The position numbers and the translations under genes were made by a program. The notes under the pieces are model-generated. The model saw only the letters and a list, made by a program, of their open reading frames with translations. It was not told where the DNA came from and ran no database searches. 64,000 bases of DNA from an uncultured delta proteobacterium (GTDB lineage: Bacteria; Desulfobacterota; Syntrophia; Syntrophales; UBA2185): positions 608,001 through 672,000 of the forward strand of contig CAVSPA010000004.1 of assembly GCA_963729715.1 (NCBI GenBank). Reading direction: 5' to 3'. Position 1 is the first letter of the stretch; every line of letters starts with the position of its first letter. Below are positions 5,384-49,506 of the stretch, piece after piece.

Positions 5384-6937
5384 GTGGACGAAAGTCATAA
5401 GAGTTATAAATGGCTGGTTACGGTAACTGTGATAACAGGAGCAATAATGGGTGCTCTCGATATGAGCATCGTCAATGTTGCCCTGCCTCACATGCGAGGA
5501 AGCCTCGGGGCTTCTGTTGAAGAGATTACCTGGGTTTCAACAGGCTACATTCTCTCCAGCGTCATCATCATGCCCATTGTCGCCCTTCTAAGTTCCAGGT
5601 TCGGGCGCAAACGCTTCTATATCTTTTCCGTCATCCTGTTCACAGGCGCTTCCATGCTTTGTGGAATTGCCTGGGATCTTCCGTCAATGGTCATCTTCCG
5701 TATTCTTCAGGGCATAGGCGGCGGCACCCTTATACCGGTCGCACAGGCAATACTTAGAGAAACATTTCCTCCCGAGGAACAGGCAATGGCTATGGGTATC
5801 TATGGCCTCGGCGTTATTCTCGGTCCCGCGTTTGGCCCGACTCTCGGAGGATGGCTTACCGACAATTATTCCTGGCCATGGATCTTTTATATCAATATTC
5901 CCGTCGGCATCATCAACACCCTCCTGGTGATGCGATACATACAGGACCCGCCATACCTCGTCCGGGAAAGAGGGAAACTTGATTTTGCAGGCCTTCTATT
6001 TATGGCGATTGGCCTGGGAACGCTGCAAATCCTACTCGAAAAAGGCGACCAGAAGGATTGGTTCTCATCTGATTTTATCACATATCTGGCAATTATTTCC
6101 TCCGCAGGTCTTCTGCTGTTTATATGGCGGGAATTGACCACGGACAGGCCGGCAGTTGATCTGCGAATCCTGAAGGATGTCAATTTTGCCTCGGCAACCT
6201 TCCTTGGCAGTGTGCTCGGCATAACCCTTTTTAGCAGCATCTTTATCCTACCGCTTTTCCTGCAGCAGCTTCTCAATTACCCTGCCCTAGACTCGGGGTT
6301 GGCGCTTATGCCGAGGAGCATAGCCATGGCTGTTGCAATGCCGGTCGGTGGGAAGCTTTACAACAGGGCGGGGCCAAGACTGTTAATCGGGGCGGGACTC
6401 TTTATGAATGTAGTTTCATTTTATCAGCTTTCTCGCCTCTCGCTAGCTGTGGGTTATTGGGATATATTCTTCCCTCAATTCCTGCAGGGAATCGGGTACG
6501 GATTCATATTTGTCGCGCTGACCACGGCGGCACTCTCTACCATTGAAAAGCCTCTTATGACTGCTGCTTCGGGCCTCTATAACGTCGTCCGGCAGATCTT
6601 CGGCAGCATAGGCATCGCTCTGGCCGCCACTTTGTTGACACGGGGAGAAAACTGGAACAGGGCGATCATTACGGAGCATGTGACCATCTTCCGGGACGTT
6701 ACCTCAGAATCACTTAACAGGCTTTCATCTTTTTTCTATTCTCAAGGCCTGGACCGGATTAGTGCAGGCAGAAGGGCGCTTAAGGTGTTGGATGGATTCA
6801 TCATGCAACAAGCCAGTATGCTTTCATTTAACCACATTTTTTTTCTGATGGCGGCGCTCTTTTTATTTTCAATACCTCTAGTCTTCCTCATTAAAGACAA
6901 ACAAAGGACCGTAAGCGCGGAGATCGTTACAGACTGA
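5384..6937 (+). CDS. EmrB/DHA2-family MFS efflux permease
   Basis: LDMSIVNVALP, RFGRKR, GPAFGPTLGGWLTDNYSWPWIFYINIPVG; many TM segments. Confidence 0.93.
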   Translation: MDESHKSYKWLVTVTVITGAIMGALDMSIVNVALPHMRGSLGASVEEITWVSTGYILSSVIIMPIVALLSSRFGRKRFYIFSVILFTGASMLCGIAWDLPSMVIFRILQGIGGGTLIPVAQAILRETFPPEEQAMAMGIYGLGVILGPAFGPTLGGWLTDNYSWPWIFYINIPVGIINTLLVMRYIQDPPYLVRERGKLDFAGLLFMAIGLGTLQILLEKGDQKDWFSSDFITYLAIISSAGLLLFIWRELTTDRPAVDLRILKDVNFASATFLGSVLGITLFSSIFILPLFLQQLLNYPALDSGLALMPRSIAMAVAMPVGGKLYNRAGPRLLIGAGLFMNVVSFYQLSRLSLAVGYWDIFFPQFLQGIGYGFIFVALTTAALSTIEKPLMTAASGLYNVVRQIFGSIGIALAATLLTRGENWNRAIITEHVTIFRDVTSESLNRLSSFFYSQGLDRISAGRRALKVLDGFIMQQASMLSFNHIFFLMAALFLFSIPLVFLIKDKQRTVSAEIVTD

Positions 6938-38853: not shown

Positions 38854-39477
38854 AATCCTGCATTCTCCCAGGCCAGACTTAATCTGGCGGCTGTTGTCAA
38901 GTTTAGTGCTGCATAGCTGTAAGCATCAATCTGCCACTTTTTGTTTCCGTAGTAGAGTTCTCCTGTACTCGTTAATTCGCATTGTTTGCAAAAAGAACAC
39001 ACTTTCTCCTGAAAATTAATTATCCAAATAGTACCTCCTCTTTACATGTGGAGCAGCCAGTTGAGGTTTTAAAAATTTCTCCTGCGTGCTCTATGGCAAC
39101 ATTGGTTTGTTCTTATAACTGGCTTAGGTCAGTTTCAAATCCGGGGTCTTAAACCACCAGTAAGGTTCGACCTTTGTTCCACGGTATTCAAACTATGCCA
39201 TCTAATAAACGAACAGAGACCTCGGATGCAACCATAATTTTCATTCTTTTTTGTGCCGACTGGTCGGCATGGGGGTTTCAATGAGTATTCCGACGCAAGC
39301 CGCCACCCGAATATGATTGAAAGCGCCACCCTAATATGATTCATTCCGCCACCCGAATATGACGGAAAGCGCCACCCGATTCCGATCCAATCCGCCACCC
39401 CTGATGAAGGGATAAACGACGCTGGATAAATCCGATGAAAGCCGTTAGGACTCCTGACAAAAACCCAGGAGGACACC

Positions 39478-41040
39478 GTGGCGGCAGAAAGGTTATCCAT
39501 GCGCACCATAAAAGAAGTTCTACGATTGAAGTGGGAGAAAAAGTTCTCCAACCAGCAGATTTCACAAAGCTGCAATATCGCCCGGAGCACAATCAGGGGA
39601 TACTTGGCACGCGCTCAAAACGCCGGTCTGAGTTGGCCTCTGAGCCCCGATCTCGATGACGGCTCCCTTGAAGCGCTGATGTTTCCGCCAGCACCAACAA
39701 AAGCCCCTGACAAGGGAGGACTACCCGCAATGGAGTACCTCCGTAAGGAGCTGAACCGCAAGGGGGTAACCCTATATCTTCTGTGGCTGGAATATAGAGC
39801 AGCCAACCCGGATGGGTATCAATACAGTCAGTTCTGTCTCCTTTATCGCCAGTGGACGGGCAAGCTGGATGTTTGCCTGCGCCAGACCCATCGGGCCGGG
39901 GAAAAGGTCTTTGTTGACTATGCCGGTCAGACGATCCCTGTTACGGATCCGGTTTCCGGGCAAATAAAAGAGGCGCATCTTTTTATCGCCGCCTTGGGCG
40001 CCAGCAGCTACACGTTTGCGTGGGCCTCTTTCTCGCAGGATCTTCCTTCCTGGGTCGATGCCCATATCCGGGCATTTAACTTCTTCGAGGGCGTCCCGGA
40101 GATCCTTGTTCCCGACAATCTCAAATCCGGCGTGAACAAACCCTGCACCTACGAACCGGACATCAATCCGACCTATCATGATCTGGCGGAACATTATGGA
40201 GCGGTAGTCATTCCCACCCGCATCGCCAAACCGAAGGACAAGGCCAAAGCAGAATCGGCGGTTTTTGTGGCGGAACGGTGGATCTTGGCGGCGCTTCGGA
40301 ACCACACTTTCTTCGGCATCGTGGAACTGAACCGGGCTATTGCCGAAAAGCTTCAGGACATGAACAGCCGCAAGTTCCAAAAGATGGACGGCACCCGGAG
40401 GAGTCTTTACGAAACCATTGACCGGCCAGCTTTGAAACCGCTGCCTTCTTCTCCTTATGAATATGCCGAATGGAAGAAGGCGAGAGTCAACATCGATTAC
40501 CACATCGAGATCGACGGTCACTATTACAGTGTTCCCTATCAACTTGTAAAAGAACAGGTGGAGGTCCGCTTCACGGCGACCACCATCGAGGCGTTGTTCA
40601 AAAACCGTCGCGTCGCAACCCATCCGAGAAGTTACCACAGAGGTGCGCACACAACGCTGGCAGAACATATGCCCAAGGCACACCAAAAATATTTAGAATG
40701 GACTCCTTCCCGGATCATGGACTGGGCAGGTAAAAACGGTCCCAACACCCGTAATCTGGCTTCCTGCATCATGGAGAACCGTAAACATCCGGAGCAGGGT
40801 TTCCGCTCCTGTCTGGGCATCATGAGGCTGGTAAAGCGATACTCATCCGAGCGGGTGGAGGCAGCCTGTGGACGTTCCCTGCTGCTGAGGGCCTACAGTT
40901 ACAAGAGCGTCGAATCGATCCTGAAAACCAACCTTGACAAACAGGAGTTGCCGGAATCCCTCTCTTCCGAAAAACCGATCCTCCATTACAACATCCGGGG
41001 AAGGGAATATTACCAGCAAGAGGAGGCTGTCGATGCTTGA
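39478..41040 (+). CDS. istA: IS21 transposase
   Basis: N-terminal HTH; VDYAG, PDNLKSGV, KPKDKAKAE DDE core. Confidence 0.95.
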   Translation: MAAERLSMRTIKEVLRLKWEKKFSNQQISQSCNIARSTIRGYLARAQNAGLSWPLSPDLDDGSLEALMFPPAPTKAPDKGGLPAMEYLRKELNRKGVTLYLLWLEYRAANPDGYQYSQFCLLYRQWTGKLDVCLRQTHRAGEKVFVDYAGQTIPVTDPVSGQIKEAHLFIAALGASSYTFAWASFSQDLPSWVDAHIRAFNFFEGVPEILVPDNLKSGVNKPCTYEPDINPTYHDLAEHYGAVVIPTRIAKPKDKAKAESAVFVAERWILAALRNHTFFGIVELNRAIAEKLQDMNSRKFQKMDGTRRSLYETIDRPALKPLPSSPYEYAEWKKARVNIDYHIEIDGHYYSVPYQLVKEQVEVRFTATTIEALFKNRRVATHPRSYHRGAHTTLAEHMPKAHQKYLEWTPSRIMDWAGKNGPNTRNLASCIMENRKHPEQGFRSCLGIMRLVKRYSSERVEAACGRSLLLRAYSYKSVESILKTNLDKQELPESLSSEKPILHYNIRGREYYQQEEAVDA

Positions 41041-41776
41041 TCAACAGACCATAAACAAACTTTATGAACTGAAACTGACGGGCATGGCGGAGGCCTTCGC
41101 CGATCAGCAAAACCAGCCGGATATGGATAAGCTCTCCTTCGCAGAACGTTTCGGTCTTATTGTAGATCGTCAATGGACCTGGAAAGAAAACAACCGATTG
41201 GAACGATATCTGAAAAATGCCCGGATGAAACTCAATGCCTGCATTGAGGATATCGACTATAAAACCCCGCGGGGACTCGATCGCTCAGTTATGATGAGCC
41301 TCAGCTCCTGCGATTGGGTCAAACGACACCACAACATTATTATCACCGGCCCCACCGGTGCGGGAAAAACCTTCCTCGCCTGCGCTCTGACCAACAAGGC
41401 TTGTCGGGAAGGATACCGTGCTCTCTACGTCCGATCCCCCGCGTTCTCATACCAGATGGTCCTGGCCAGGGGAGACGGAAGCTACGGCAAGACCATCAAC
41501 AAACTCGCCAAGGCCCATGTCCTGGTGATTGACGATCTCGGCCTTGCTCCCATGACCGATGCCGAACGAAGAGACCTCCTGGAGGTCGTTGAGGAAAGAC
41601 ATGGCCACGCCTCTACTATCGTCGCCAGTCAACTCCCCGTGGAGCACTGGCATGAACAGATCGGCGATCCCACCATCGCCGATGCTATCCTTGACCGGTT
41701 GATCCATAACGCCCATAAAATAAACCTGTCCATGAAAGGAGGCTCCCTGAGAAAAAAATATGCCGGCTTGACCTGA
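41033..41776 (+). CDS. istB: IS21 helper AAA+ ATPase
   Basis: GPTGAGKT Walker A, LVIDDLG Walker B, ADAILDRLIHNAH; overlaps the istA stop. Confidence 0.95.
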   Translation: MLDQQTINKLYELKLTGMAEAFADQQNQPDMDKLSFAERFGLIVDRQWTWKENNRLERYLKNARMKLNACIEDIDYKTPRGLDRSVMMSLSSCDWVKRHHNIIITGPTGAGKTFLACALTNKACREGYRALYVRSPAFSYQMVLARGDGSYGKTINKLAKAHVLVIDDLGLAPMTDAERRDLLEVVEERHGHASTIVASQLPVEHWHEQIGDPTIADAILDRLIHNAHKINLSMKGGSLRKKYAGLT

Positions 41777-42011
41777 AAAAGCTTCTATGAGAAAGAGCTA
41801 AAAACCAGCGTCGCTATGCTCCGACAAGGGGTGGCGGAATCAACCGGAACACCCTGGCGCTTTGAATCGGAACAGGGTGGCCGCTTCCTTCGGAATCGAG
41901 TGGCGGAATCATCGGAATAGGCATTTCAAATGGAAATCACCAGAGTTATGTTGAGGTTCTTTTAAGGTATCCGCTTGACAAGATAACCTGAATTTGTTTG
42001 ACTGCAAGAAA

Positions 42012-42064
42012 GGTGATGGAGTTCACCCGCAAACAAACCGCCGACAAGGCTGATAACTCCTACC
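42012..42064 (+). ncRNA. Fluoride riboswitch (crcB motif)
   Basis: GGTGATGGAGTTCACC...GCCGACAAGGC TGATAACTCCTACC fits the crcB pattern (GGYGAUGGAGUUCRCC...GCURAURACUCCUAC); P1 GGTGA/TCACC, pseudoknot GGAGT/ACTCC. Confidence 0.92.
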
Positions 42065-42089
42065 AGCGTTATTCTGGAGGAGTTTTTTT
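42055..42089 (+). terminator. Riboswitch expression platform: terminator/anti-SD hairpin
   Basis: AACTCCTACCAG-loop-CTGGAGGAGTT followed by a T-run ending at the ATG; the stem uses the pseudoknot strand and covers the GGAGG SD. Confidence 0.8.
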
Positions 42090-43751
42090 ATGTCAGATAC
42101 TGCCCGCACTCAGGATGTTTCACAGCGGTCACTGAAAGACGTTCTTGAGCTTTGCGACAGATTTTCCATTCTTTCCCTGAACCGCCAGATAGAAGCCTGC
42201 GAGAAGTTACTTGTCCAGAACCCGTCCATTGATGTGGCGATCCTTGGTCAGTTTAAGGCAGGTAAAAGTTCTTTCATCAATAGTCTTATAGGCAAATCAA
42301 TCCTTCCCGTTGGTGTCATACCGGTTACTACGGTGATTACCCGCCTTCAATATGGAGAAAAAGAACAAGTCTTTATAAGATATTTTGACGGCAGGACATC
42401 CGAGATTAGCATTAACGATATTGGAACTTTTACCTCTGAAGCCGAAAATCCATCAAATAATAAAAACGTAGAGGTTGTAGATATTGAGCTTCCGTCTCTT
42501 AGGGCTTATGCCGGTCTCCGCTTGGTGGATACCCCCGGCTTGGGAAGTGTCTTCAAATATCACGTCGAAACCTCTGAAAATTGGCTTCCCCATGTTGGCA
42601 CTGCCATACTTGCCATAAGCTCCGATCGACCCCTTTCGGACAATGACGTGCAATTGATTCGGGAGCTGATGCAGCATACACCGAATATAGTCATACTCCT
42701 CACAAAAGCTGACCTTCTATCGCCGGAACAGCAGAACGAAGTCATAGAATTTTTTGAGCAAACGATTCAGCGAGAATTAAACCGGCGATTACCGATCTAT
42801 GTATACTCGACCCGTGTGAAGACAGAGCAATGCAAGGATCGCCTAGAAGTAGGACTTCTCTACATGTTGTCCTTAAACCGTGATTTCGAGTTCAGGAAAA
42901 TCCTCCAGTACAAGATGCAGTCCCTGATAAAAGACTGTCTCTGCTATCTCGATATTGCCCTGAAAACATCTTTGCAGGCTGAGTATGATCGAGATTTACT
43001 GCGTAAACAGATTTTCGATGAAAAGGTTAATTTTGATCTGATACGTGAGGAACTAACTATTATTGCCCGCGAGAACCAGAGACAGACTCGAACCCTTATT
43101 ATGAATTACCTTGATAATTTTCAGAGGCCTCTTAGGAAAACACTTTCTGAAGATTTGGAAAAAGAGCTTCCCACGTGGAAAGTTAATCTCTGGAAACTCA
43201 CCCGGAGATATGAAGAGTGGCTTGCAGACCGCATGACAGAGGAGATGAAGTATATTTCCAAAACAGAGCATAGACATTTCTATGGCACTCTCAACAAGGC
43301 ACACGCAAGTTTATCCAGATCAATCGAAGCCTTCCGAAATCTTCTGGGTAAAAATATCAAAAAAGTCCTTGGCGTGAGGCTCGCTGATGCGGACTGGAAA
43401 ATCGAGGTATCGGAACCCGATCACCCCGACATCAAGACGATAAGATCATTTGACTTCCATTTCGATCTTATCTGGTTTCTTATCCCCATGTTCATTTTCA
43501 GGGGTCTTTTTGAGAAGCATTTTATTAGCGAGATTCCCCGCGAAGTGGAGGCTAACCTCTCGCGCCATGCCGCCCAGTGGGAGGAACGCATCAACACGGC
43601 AATCGAAGAAATTCGAAAACAGGCGATTAATTACGTAAAAGAAGAACTCTCCACCATAGACGCCTTGTTATGGAAGACGCATGGTCAAACGGATGAGATC
43701 AATGAGGCCATTAAGAAACTCCAAGAAGGATTGCAGGACTTAATTGCTTAA
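42090..43751 (+). CDS. Bacterial dynamin-like GTPase
   Basis: G1 GQFKAGKSS, G2 PVTT, G3 DTPG, G4 TKAD, long helical C-terminal region with hydrophobic stretch LIWFLIPMFIF. Confidence 0.9.
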   Translation: MSDTARTQDVSQRSLKDVLELCDRFSILSLNRQIEACEKLLVQNPSIDVAILGQFKAGKSSFINSLIGKSILPVGVIPVTTVITRLQYGEKEQVFIRYFDGRTSEISINDIGTFTSEAENPSNNKNVEVVDIELPSLRAYAGLRLVDTPGLGSVFKYHVETSENWLPHVGTAILAISSDRPLSDNDVQLIRELMQHTPNIVILLTKADLLSPEQQNEVIEFFEQTIQRELNRRLPIYVYSTRVKTEQCKDRLEVGLLYMLSLNRDFEFRKILQYKMQSLIKDCLCYLDIALKTSLQAEYDRDLLRKQIFDEKVNFDLIREELTIIARENQRQTRTLIMNYLDNFQRPLRKTLSEDLEKELPTWKVNLWKLTRRYEEWLADRMTEEMKYISKTEHRHFYGTLNKAHASLSRSIEAFRNLLGKNIKKVLGVRLADADWKIEVSEPDHPDIKTIRSFDFHFDLIWFLIPMFIFRGLFEKHFISEIPREVEANLSRHAAQWEERINTAIEEIRKQAINYVKEELSTIDALLWKTHGQTDEINEAIKKLQEGLQDLIA

Positions 43752-43834
43752 CTTGACGCAATAGATTGTTAGATATTCAGGTGGAGCTATGTCTTGCCGT
43801 AATTTTTGTGAATTCAATGAAAAGGGGAATATAA

Positions 43835-44272
43835 ATGGAGCAGAAGAAAGGTTGTGTATTTTGTGACATCGTGGCGGGTAAGGCAGAAGCATATAGGATT
43901 TATGAAGATGAGCTTTCCATCTGCATACTGGATATCCACCCTTACACAAAGGGTCACTGCCTGGTAGTTCCAAAGCGGCATGTCCAGTGGTGGCATGAGC
44001 TCGCTGATGAAGAAAATGCAAGTCTTTTTAAGATGGCTAAGGTTGTTGCCAACCGGATGATGAACAAATTTAATTCCGACTTCATTTTTCTCTGGGCAAG
44101 GGGCACAAGAATTCCGCATGCACATCTTTTCGTGGTGCCAAGTTACAACGGTGATGTACTCGACCAATTTTTCAACGCCCTTGAAAATTTCCAGGAATCA
44201 GCAGAGGAACTGACAAGGCTAAGAAAAGCTGAAGCGATGAAAGAAGCAGCGAGGCTTCTCAGCACTAAATAA
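43835..44272 (+). CDS. HIT-family nucleotide hydrolase
   Basis: CVFC, DIHPYTKGHCLVVPKRH, IPHAHLF (third His of the triad replaced by F). Confidence 0.88.
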   Translation: MEQKKGCVFCDIVAGKAEAYRIYEDELSICILDIHPYTKGHCLVVPKRHVQWWHELADEENASLFKMAKVVANRMMNKFNSDFIFLWARGTRIPHAHLFVVPSYNGDVLDQFFNALENFQESAEELTRLRKAEAMKEAARLLSTK

Positions 44273-45955: not shown

Positions 45956-46083
45956 AACGCAGGAGTTCAGATTTATCTAACAGAAAACTGATTGTATTAC
46001 GTTCAATCTGACATCAAGACACTTGGAGATTAATTAATCTATAAGCTTGGTAGCAACTGTGTTTCACGTCAAGTAGTATTTTA

Positions 46084-48600
<2,517 letters not shown>

Positions 48601-48688: not shown

Positions 48689-49506
48689 TCATTTGCTTCT
48701 TCCTTGTAGTCTATCAACCAGCTCCAATTGAATGAGGATATGCCTTATATCCATGGACAAACCTGCGGCCCCTTCCCTGATACCAATGGTATTCTTTGCG
48801 AGTCTGATAAGCATCTCCGCATGGCTTTCCCTGAATTTACCCCTGCTCCTCTTCCTTATCTCTTTGCCAAGCTCTTCCTTTTTTAAACCGCCTATGATTT
48901 CAGGTGTGAGATATTTATTGAGTATATAGAGAGCTGTCTTGACCTGTATATCCTTTATCACCCTTCTGAATTCGGGAAACAAGAGAAAGACCAGTTGCTG
49001 CAACTGATTGAGAAGGGCCGTACGTTCCCCGACATGCCTCTCCCTCGAGTTGTTCAATCTCTTCAAGTAGGCCGCATCACCTTCCGGGATCACAATGCTC
49101 AGTGAGTGCCCCAATAGTATAATATCCGCCAGTACCCGGGGATCCTTGTCATCTGTCTTCAGCGGAGAGTTGTCGTTTATCTCTTTTACCCTCTTTGTGT
49201 GCATGGGATTAACCTGGACTACCGTCACGGGCTTCTTTGACAGGTAATGGCCGATGGGTTCACCATAGGGACCTGTTGATTCGTATCCTACGATCACCTC
49301 ATTGCATCTGAACCTGTTCTTATTCACAACAATCATGCTCCAGAGCCTGTCAAGCCCCGCCCTCGTATTGTCAAATCTGAAAGGCTTTATATCCCTTCCG
49401 TCTGTGGTGGTACAGTACCCTCTGTTCATCTCCAAACCGATTCTATTGTCACGATCAGCGTATCTTCCTTTACCCTTCCTATTTTCCCTGTGCATGCTTT
49501 CTTCAT
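48689..49506 (-). pseudogene. Truncated, frameshifted IS110-family transposase (second type)
   Basis: MKKACTG...LIVTI(frameshift about 49441)IGLEM, YESTGPY, NP, KTDDKD; C-terminal domain missing. Confidence 0.85.

Follow-up and report, generated by a model that had tools for sequence, protein, structure and literature searches.

The window analyzed here is the whole 64,000-nucleotide stretch at positions 608,001 to 672,000 of contig CAVSPA010000004.1 (assembly GCA_963729715.1), from an uncultured delta proteobacterium of the order Syntrophales (lineage UBA2185). Within it, a fluoride riboswitch stands directly before the gene for a dynamin-like GTPase, and a gene for a HIT-family protein follows. 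Counted from the first letter of the window, the locus comprises:

42003..42069, forward strand: fluoride riboswitch aptamer (crcB motif; Rfam), with P1 at 42012-42016/42023-42027, P3, and the pseudoknot GGAGU/ACUCC, whose second strand is 42056-42060
42055..42089, forward strand: expression platform hairpin in which the pseudoknot strand pairs with the Shine-Dalgarno (SD) sequence, with seven T after it; the predicted OFF state, terminator-like and SD-blocking
42090..43751, forward strand: dynamin-like GTPase of 553 amino acids (Pfam PF00350 Dynamin_N, E 1.8e-24), with neck helices, a G domain at about 47-240 (G1 GQFKAGKS, G2 T80, G3 DTPG, G4 TKAD), a helical trunk and a hydrophobic segment at 458-474
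43835..44272, forward strand: HIT-family nucleotide hydrolase of 145 amino acids (Pfam PF01230, E 8.4e-16), with the third triad histidine replaced (HAHLF)
41975..42003, forward strand: likely promoter, read from the sequence, with a -35 box TTGACA (41975-41980), a 17-nucleotide spacer and a weak extended -10 (TG, TTGACT 41998-42003)
about 39282..41924, forward strand: IS21-family element with istA (39478-41040) and istB (to 41776), identified by Pfam Mu-transpos_C_2/rve and IstB_IS21

A first-pass annotation of this DNA had already read a full crcB aptamer, an ACTCC/GGAG hairpin with a U-tract that buries the SD, a 553-amino acid dynamin-like protein, a HIT hydrolase behind it and no exporter gene in the window. 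Our analysis bears out each of these points and corrects one distance: ACTCC (42056-42060) ends 29 nucleotides before the ATG, and not 25.

The aptamer matches RF01734 over the whole model (positions 1-64) at 55.0 bits, where the gathering score is 34 (E 1.6e-12). P1, P3 and the GGAGU/ACUCC pseudoknot are all present, and the core positions are invariant across 33 aligned leaders. RF01734 is the sole Rfam family detected in the window, and this match is the single fluoride riboswitch of the host genome as searched (3.76 Mb in 19 contigs, 100% complete, 6.5% contaminated).

The hairpin that follows forms when AACUCCU (42055-42061) pairs with AGGAGUU (42078-42084), enclosing an inner CCAG/CUGG stem; its folding energy is -13.6 kcal/mol. 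The SD, GGAGGAG (42076-42082), lies within it, and the run of seven T (42083-42089) ends directly before the ATG at 42090. A simple terminator scan of the window did not call this bulged hairpin, and its assignment draws on direct reading and conservation. Folding gives the SD an unpaired probability of about 0 when the leader is unconstrained (OFF) and of 0.49-0.87 for five of its seven nucleotides when the aptamer is sequestered; the platform is thus predicted to compete for the 3' strand of the aptamer. Fluoride riboswitches as a class have ON logic, the pseudoknot strand being contested by a hairpin farther downstream (PMC2864571), and by analogy with the class the switch is expected to turn its gene on in this host as well.

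Conservation of the leader points in the same direction. The aptamer and the SD fix the outer stem; in 27 of 33 leaders the inner stem, which varies, is more stable than shuffled versions of itself (p<0.1). Sorting 60 leaders, the present one included, gave 39 with a single hairpin before the start codon (30 with at least five T, nine without), 10 with two linked hairpins, and 11 of other form, six of which show a single hairpin and a T-run by eye. Because of this distribution, we take SD blocking to be the constant feature and termination to be a frequent second layer. The leaders of L024, L031, L033, L037, L040, L043, L073 and L077 form a two-hairpin relay: the SD lies in a second ACTCCT/GGAG hairpin, and the GGAG arm of the first can pair alternately with the aptamer strand and with the second anti-SD strand. 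Tandem fluoride-aptamer-like motifs lie downstream of an enolase gene at L018:9028-9124, L067:2975-3065 and G087:C15.

The protein encoded behind the switch carries the G1 to G4 motifs expected of a bacterial dynamin-like protein (DLP), and its Dynamin_N match scores 87 bits against a cut-off of 27. Across 124 diverse sequences G53, G58, K59, P78, T80, D147, P149, G150, K206 and D208 are invariant, and K56 is kept in 98%. The AlphaFold2 model, which has a mean predicted local distance difference test score (pLDDT) of 94.1 and a predicted template-modeling score (pTM) of 0.87, shows a G domain, an extended helical trunk and neck helices at the two ends, and the top fold matches by both Foldseek and VIA-align are all DLPs. 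Foldseek ranks IniA first (E 1.8e-19), then BDLP1 (1.1e-18), Cj-DLP2 and SynDLP, with template-modeling scores of 0.30-0.38; VIA-align places a truncated Fzo1 first (Z 28.4, root-mean-square deviation [rmsd] 2.8 over 306 residues), followed by MFN1 (Z 26.8) and IniA (Z 23.3, rmsd 12.4 over 472). Residues 458-474 are the most hydrophobic short stretch and are conserved, with P466 in 98% of sequences. From the place of this stretch between the trunk helices, we predict that it forms a membrane tip at the far end of the trunk. There is no clear full transmembrane helix, the 19-residue hydropathy at the tip being 1.55. A predicted complex of the G-domain dimer with GDP and Mg scored 0.39 against a mark of 0.42.

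Among characterized DLPs, IniA of Mycobacterium smegmatis (6j72/6j73) is the best Foldseek match, has a profile E of 7e-24, shares the neck-G-trunk layout and is induced by stress, as the window gene is predicted to be by fluoride. The two differ in that their identity is 15%, and IniA is drug-induced and works with IniC, whereas the window gene is a single copy behind a riboswitch. The G domain and neck superpose well on Fzo1/mitofusin (9kfd, 5yew), Cj-DLP2 of the Campylobacter DLP1/DLP2 pair (5owv) is the best sequence-profile match (E 8e-29), and BDLP1 of Nostoc (2j68/2j69) is the high Foldseek match already given; compared with this group, the window protein is shorter and is the one that lacks a clear full transmembrane helix. 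Most bacterial DLP genes come in pairs (PMC6104087); this one is solitary in its genome and in most of the close loci, although a second DLP is present in some distant loci, e.g. L187. DynA of Bacillus subtilis and CrfC/YjdA of E. coli share the Dynamin_N domain, and DynA guards membrane integrity under stress (PMC12998192). The window GTPase differs from both in being single-headed, and it falls far below the NCBIfam equivalog models for DynA and CrfC (NF052648, 41 of 1600 bits; NF007368, 20 of 1146 bits).

The pairing of switch and GTPase recurs among relatives. A GTDB scan returned 74 loci, mostly from Syntrophales, Smithella and Syntrophorhabdus, 73 of them at 54-89% protein identity and one at 36%. 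After 14 loci without a gene start or sufficient upstream DNA were left out, a pattern search found the riboswitch motif within 350 nucleotides upstream in 59 of 60, and Rfam confirmed all 13 that were tested. The cultured Syntrophus buswellii DM-2 (L049) is among the carriers of the motif. In a sample of 121 genomes of the order (own genome included; 10 of 62 family hits left out for a missing gene start), Rfam coordinates place RF01734 directly upstream of 51 of 52 intact family genes. Counted from the switches, 53 of the 100 that score above the cut-off head a GTPase gene, and 79 have one no more than 12 kb away. By genome, switch and gene occur together in 56, the switch alone in 8, the gene alone in 4 and neither in 53. 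The first-pass annotation had named orthologs that never carry the riboswitch among the results that would overturn its reading; the orthologs carry it nearly throughout.

The link extends beyond the order. Among 151 genomes of the phylum, the family occurs in 26, and all 26 have a fluoride switch, vs 42 of the 125 without the family. The 24 evaluable cases other than our own, from 16 families (G271, at a contig edge, was left out), have a switch within 300 nucleotides in 18, within 3 kb on the same strand in four and none in two; these cases include a group of about 600 amino acids at 25-39% identity. Next to the two switch-free genes, at L270:8858-10903 and L271:10209-12254, is a 681-amino acid open reading frame that we take to resemble a membrane pyrophosphatase. 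Of 29 metagenome loci at 36-46% identity, seven have the switch directly upstream, six farther up on the same strand and one downstream only; the remaining 15 show no switch within the available DNA, several being short or one-stranded to the edge.

Distant GTPases served as controls. None of 32 in the order has a switch within 3 kb upstream, and Rfam found none at 18 distant-GTPase loci, which represent two lineages only. In a quick G-domain tree these 18 switch-free controls fall on one side of a branch with a Shimodaira-Hasegawa-like approximate likelihood ratio (SH-aLRT) value of 93, below the starred level and with long-branch warnings. A second, switch-free dynamin-like family (L273-L287; about 560 amino acids, P-loop GEVKSGKS) is present in many genomes of the order. 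The family of the window GTPase itself has 2,086 representatives when matches with E up to 1e-30 are counted; look-alike clusters, to be taken as leads only, are most frequent in Verrucomicrobiota, Bacteroidota, Acidobacteriota and Bacillota, and a plasmid search at E 1e-20 gave no match.

Could the neighborhood nevertheless be accidental, with a switch left behind after loss of an exporter or set down by the IS21 insertion? The IS21 element, which the first-pass annotation does not mention, does terminate only about 50 nucleotides upstream of the -35 box of the likely promoter. Its ends are defined by two more copies in the genome at 99.96% identity, and it is a recent insertion just upstream, outside the riboswitch-GTPase module. 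Against an accident, switch and gene stay linked, together with a tuned SD-pairing hairpin, as protein identity falls from 89% to about 25-39%, and the upstream genes vary among close relatives while the leader stays. Because 51 of 52 genes and 53 of 100 switches are joined and 0 of 32 controls are, the pairing is not chance; we give an accidental origin almost no credence, the ortholog counts having refuted it, and hold with high confidence that the GTPase gene belongs to a fluoride regulon. The promoter itself was not called by a consensus promoter scan of the window; it was assigned by direct reading and by conservation: in 49 of 60 leaders, ours included, TTGAC occupies the -35 position. 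The surroundings are rich in insertion sequences: besides IS21, of which the genome holds three near-identical copies, there is a Mutator-family transposase (46501-47751) with neighbors to about 49500, and the short open reading frames at 46081-46416, 47850-48449 and 48689-49495 are presumably further transposase pieces.

What the host has in the way of exporters bears directly on the role of the GTPase. CRCB/Fluc has no match in the whole host genome nor in any of 22 family genomes, and Fluc occurs in 6 of the 121 genomes of the order. The host's one CLC gene (L002), on another contig, reads GHGTE, GKEGP and GIVTP where the CLC-F signatures are GNNLI/GMGLI, GREGT/V and GEVTP (PMC11139923); GIVTP is one change from GEVTP, and fluoride transport by this protein appears unlikely from its sequence. 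The CLC-F signatures are likewise absent from the 30 best-scoring CLC loci of the 57 CLC-positive genomes of the order.

One explanation is that the GTPase itself lowers cell fluoride, with vesicle shedding or fission removing fluoride-loaded or damaged material in place of the missing exporter. It would fit the 21 of 50 order genomes with switch and GTPase that have no Fluc, CLC or switch-led Na+/H+ exchanger, among them the single-contig G014, and the distribution of Fluc across the phylum, where it is present in 4 of 26 genomes with the GTPase vs 60 of 125 without (Fisher p 0.002, uncorrected for kinship). IniA and IniC, moreover, drive vesicle release (PMC10240201). Within the order, however, no such trend appears (Fluc in 1 of 60 with the GTPase vs 5 of 61 without, p 0.21), 56 of 121 genomes lack both, other PF00999 Na+/H+ exchangers are present in four of five 'exporter-free' genomes tested, and vesicles would presumably be a costly way to remove a weak acid that enters freely. 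In genome G239 a single run contains the riboswitch, crcB and the GTPase; because Fluc and the GTPase can share an operon, the GTPase is not simply a substitute for Fluc, and given the missing trend, the genomes without both and this shared run, we reject strict substitution. We consider fluoride removal by the GTPase unlikely. A stoichiometric fluoride sink was also considered and rejected, since taking up 100 uM at three fluorides per protein would require about 20,000 copies per femtoliter.

The G239 operon could instead be taken to mean that the GTPase helps a fluoride or proton transporter by placing, clustering or turning over Fluc, a switch-led CPA2 exchanger or an exporter yet to be identified. 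A Na+/H+ exchanger does accompany the GTPase in 17 of 74 loci, and all 25 order copies of a CPA2-type family lie 18-95 nucleotides behind a fluoride riboswitch. The host, however, has neither Fluc nor this CPA2 exchanger, and the transporter partners are not constant, which makes a helper role distinctly unlikely. The CPA2 family (400 amino acids; L035:10412-11614) is itself a candidate unrecognized fluoride exporter. DUF190 genes, which are usual neighbors of Fluc, follow it in L192, L195 and L198.

The genes around the GTPase change from locus to locus while the switch persists. Across the 74 loci they include enolase (21), the Na+/H+ exchangers, HIT (15), a prenyltransferase-like toroid (15), AAA/STAND ATPase (13), DUF6062 (11), GGGtGRT (10, nine with a NifU-like partner), MFS (7), HEAT (7), histidine phosphatase (5), MutS_V (5) and USP (4), with DUF190 and metallophosphoesterase added in distant loci; CRCB was not found among the 22 recurring neighbor clusters scanned. 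Enolase, antiporters, MutS and USP are known fluoride-regulon classes (PMC2864571, PMC11139923), and their presence here therefore supports fluoride as the real signal. The NifU-like scaffold and GGGtGRT protein (L058:7652-9354 and 9-10 loci), directly behind the GTPase in 8 of 68 loci, hint at iron-sulfur repair in the fluoride response.

These neighbors also suggest a further explanation, that the GTPase is an everyday membrane enzyme poisoned by metal-fluoride, as enolase is, and that the switch compensates by making more of it. They are indeed largely fluoride-sensitive phosphoryl-transfer enzymes (enolase, histidine phosphatase, AAA/MutS-type ATPases, metallophosphoesterase), and making more enzyme is the accepted reading for enolase (PMC11139923). 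An everyday enzyme, however, is hard to reconcile with a genome whose only copy of the family is riboswitch-gated, behind an OFF hairpin that hides the SD almost fully, or with a gene found in only 60 of 121 genomes of the order, unlike a housekeeping enzyme. Compensation is, in our judgment, improbable.

The HIT gene of the window is likely to be co-transcribed with the GTPase gene across a gap of 83 nucleotides in which no terminator was called. Since HIT is a variable partner, present among the same-strand genes that follow the GTPase in 15 of 68 loci, the conserved core is the riboswitch and the GTPase. The protein resembles the Hint/Fhit family, matching solved HIT proteins to E 8e-17. 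It differs in the His-x-His-x-His triad of canonical HIT hydrolases, whose third histidine is present in the two solved proteins compared and is missing here and in all 15 neighboring orthologs; the conserved segment of this subfamily is RIPH-x-H-(L/V)-F. Fhit hydrolyzes the P-F bond of adenosine 5'-monophosphofluoride (PMC7072326), and by analogy a clean-up role for the window HIT protein may be entertained as a lead only.

Because the switch fronts the GTPase in nearly all relatives, most of them without the known fluoride exporters, membrane upkeep by this protein is likely to be part of their fluoride response. In the mechanism that we propose, ACUCC would pair with the SD in the absence of fluoride, the hairpin would block the ribosome, and the U-tract would likely end transcription. 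With fluoride bound, ACUCC would be kept in the aptamer pseudoknot, which would release the SD and disrupt the terminator. The protein would then attach to the inner membrane via the hydrophobic trunk tip and use GTP to remodel lesions or stressed membrane, stabilizing or repairing it in the way IniA and DynA act under envelope stress; the result would be less leak and lysis in cells without a known fluoride exporter.

There is precedent for several of these steps. IniA binds lipids through its trunk-tip loop and drives membrane fission with GTP, and a role in preserving membrane integrity has been proposed for it (PMC6715688). DynA requires Phe and Lys residues for membrane binding and clusters under pore-forming stress (PMC12998192), and in several bacteria fluoride affects the integrity of the envelope and leads to autolysis (PMC11139923). 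Because IniA and DynA protect stressed membranes and fluoride harms the envelope, we favor fluoride-induced membrane maintenance, at about an even chance of being right. The membrane-remodeling role that the first-pass annotation had suggested is supported by the dynamin-like fold of the model and its conserved hydrophobic segment.

Several observations weigh against membrane maintenance. Whole-fold similarity to solved DLPs is modest (template-modeling scores of 0.33-0.41, 15-17% identity), a common fold demonstrates no function, and the location of the tip is deduced from the order of the trunk helices. Fluoride induction and a protective phenotype are predictions from sequence. The linkage counts are not independent events, because the genomes are kin and the samples overlap; 53 of the 121 order genomes do without both gene and switch, and G118, G194 and G223 carry the GTPase gene without a switch. 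At L022, the exception among the 60 evaluable loci, only the 3' half of the aptamer is retained: the leader (about 5880-5955) has lost the 5' half and kept the SD-blocking hairpin, and the gene would therefore stay off. Furthermore, complexes of fluoride with Mg or Al trap GTPases in a transition-like state, and induction of the enzyme may therefore coincide with its inhibition. GDP.AlF4 has been used in this way (PMC6104087).

In a bolder proposal, a dedicated and widespread dynamin-like clade might constitute a third fluoride defense beyond Fluc and CLC-F, induced by fluoride, perhaps assembled by metal-fluoride at the GDP site, sealing the membrane or shedding vesicles, and forming the main switch output of an entire order of free-living anaerobes that lack known exporters. 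We regard this proposal as possible but doubtful.

Both the riboswitch and the fold are of known kinds; what may be new is their coupling. Known fluoride regulons (crcB/Fluc, eriC-F/CLC-F, Na+/H+ antiporters, enolase, pyrophosphatase, MutS, formate hydrogen lyase) share with this one the full aptamer, the hairpin competing for the pseudoknot and recurring accessory genes. They differ in that here the first and most constant gene encodes a dynamin-like GTPase: the main text of PMC11139923 mentions neither dynamin nor GTPase, and that of PMC2864571 does not mention dynamin. The supplements of PMC2864571 hold no entry for dynamin, COG0699 or pfam00350, a weak negative, as per-RNA gene lists seem to be absent there. 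We found no prior description of the coupling in the literature searched; Baker 2012 and its supplement, the likeliest place for a prior listing, lay outside that search.

Fluc or CLC-F is present in more than 85% of the prokaryotes surveyed, and the remainder are said to be mostly reduced symbionts (PMC11139923). The order studied here stands in contrast, with genomes of 1.5-4.6 Mb, a fluoride switch in 64 of 121, Fluc in six, and more than half of its switches at one dynamin-like GTPase. The riboswitch-GTPase unit is therefore a concrete candidate for a missing arm of fluoride resistance. Through it, bacterial dynamins, whose natural triggers are mostly unknown, would gain a defined small-molecule inducer, and the unit may be of relevance to anaerobic communities that face fluoride from the breakdown of organofluorines.

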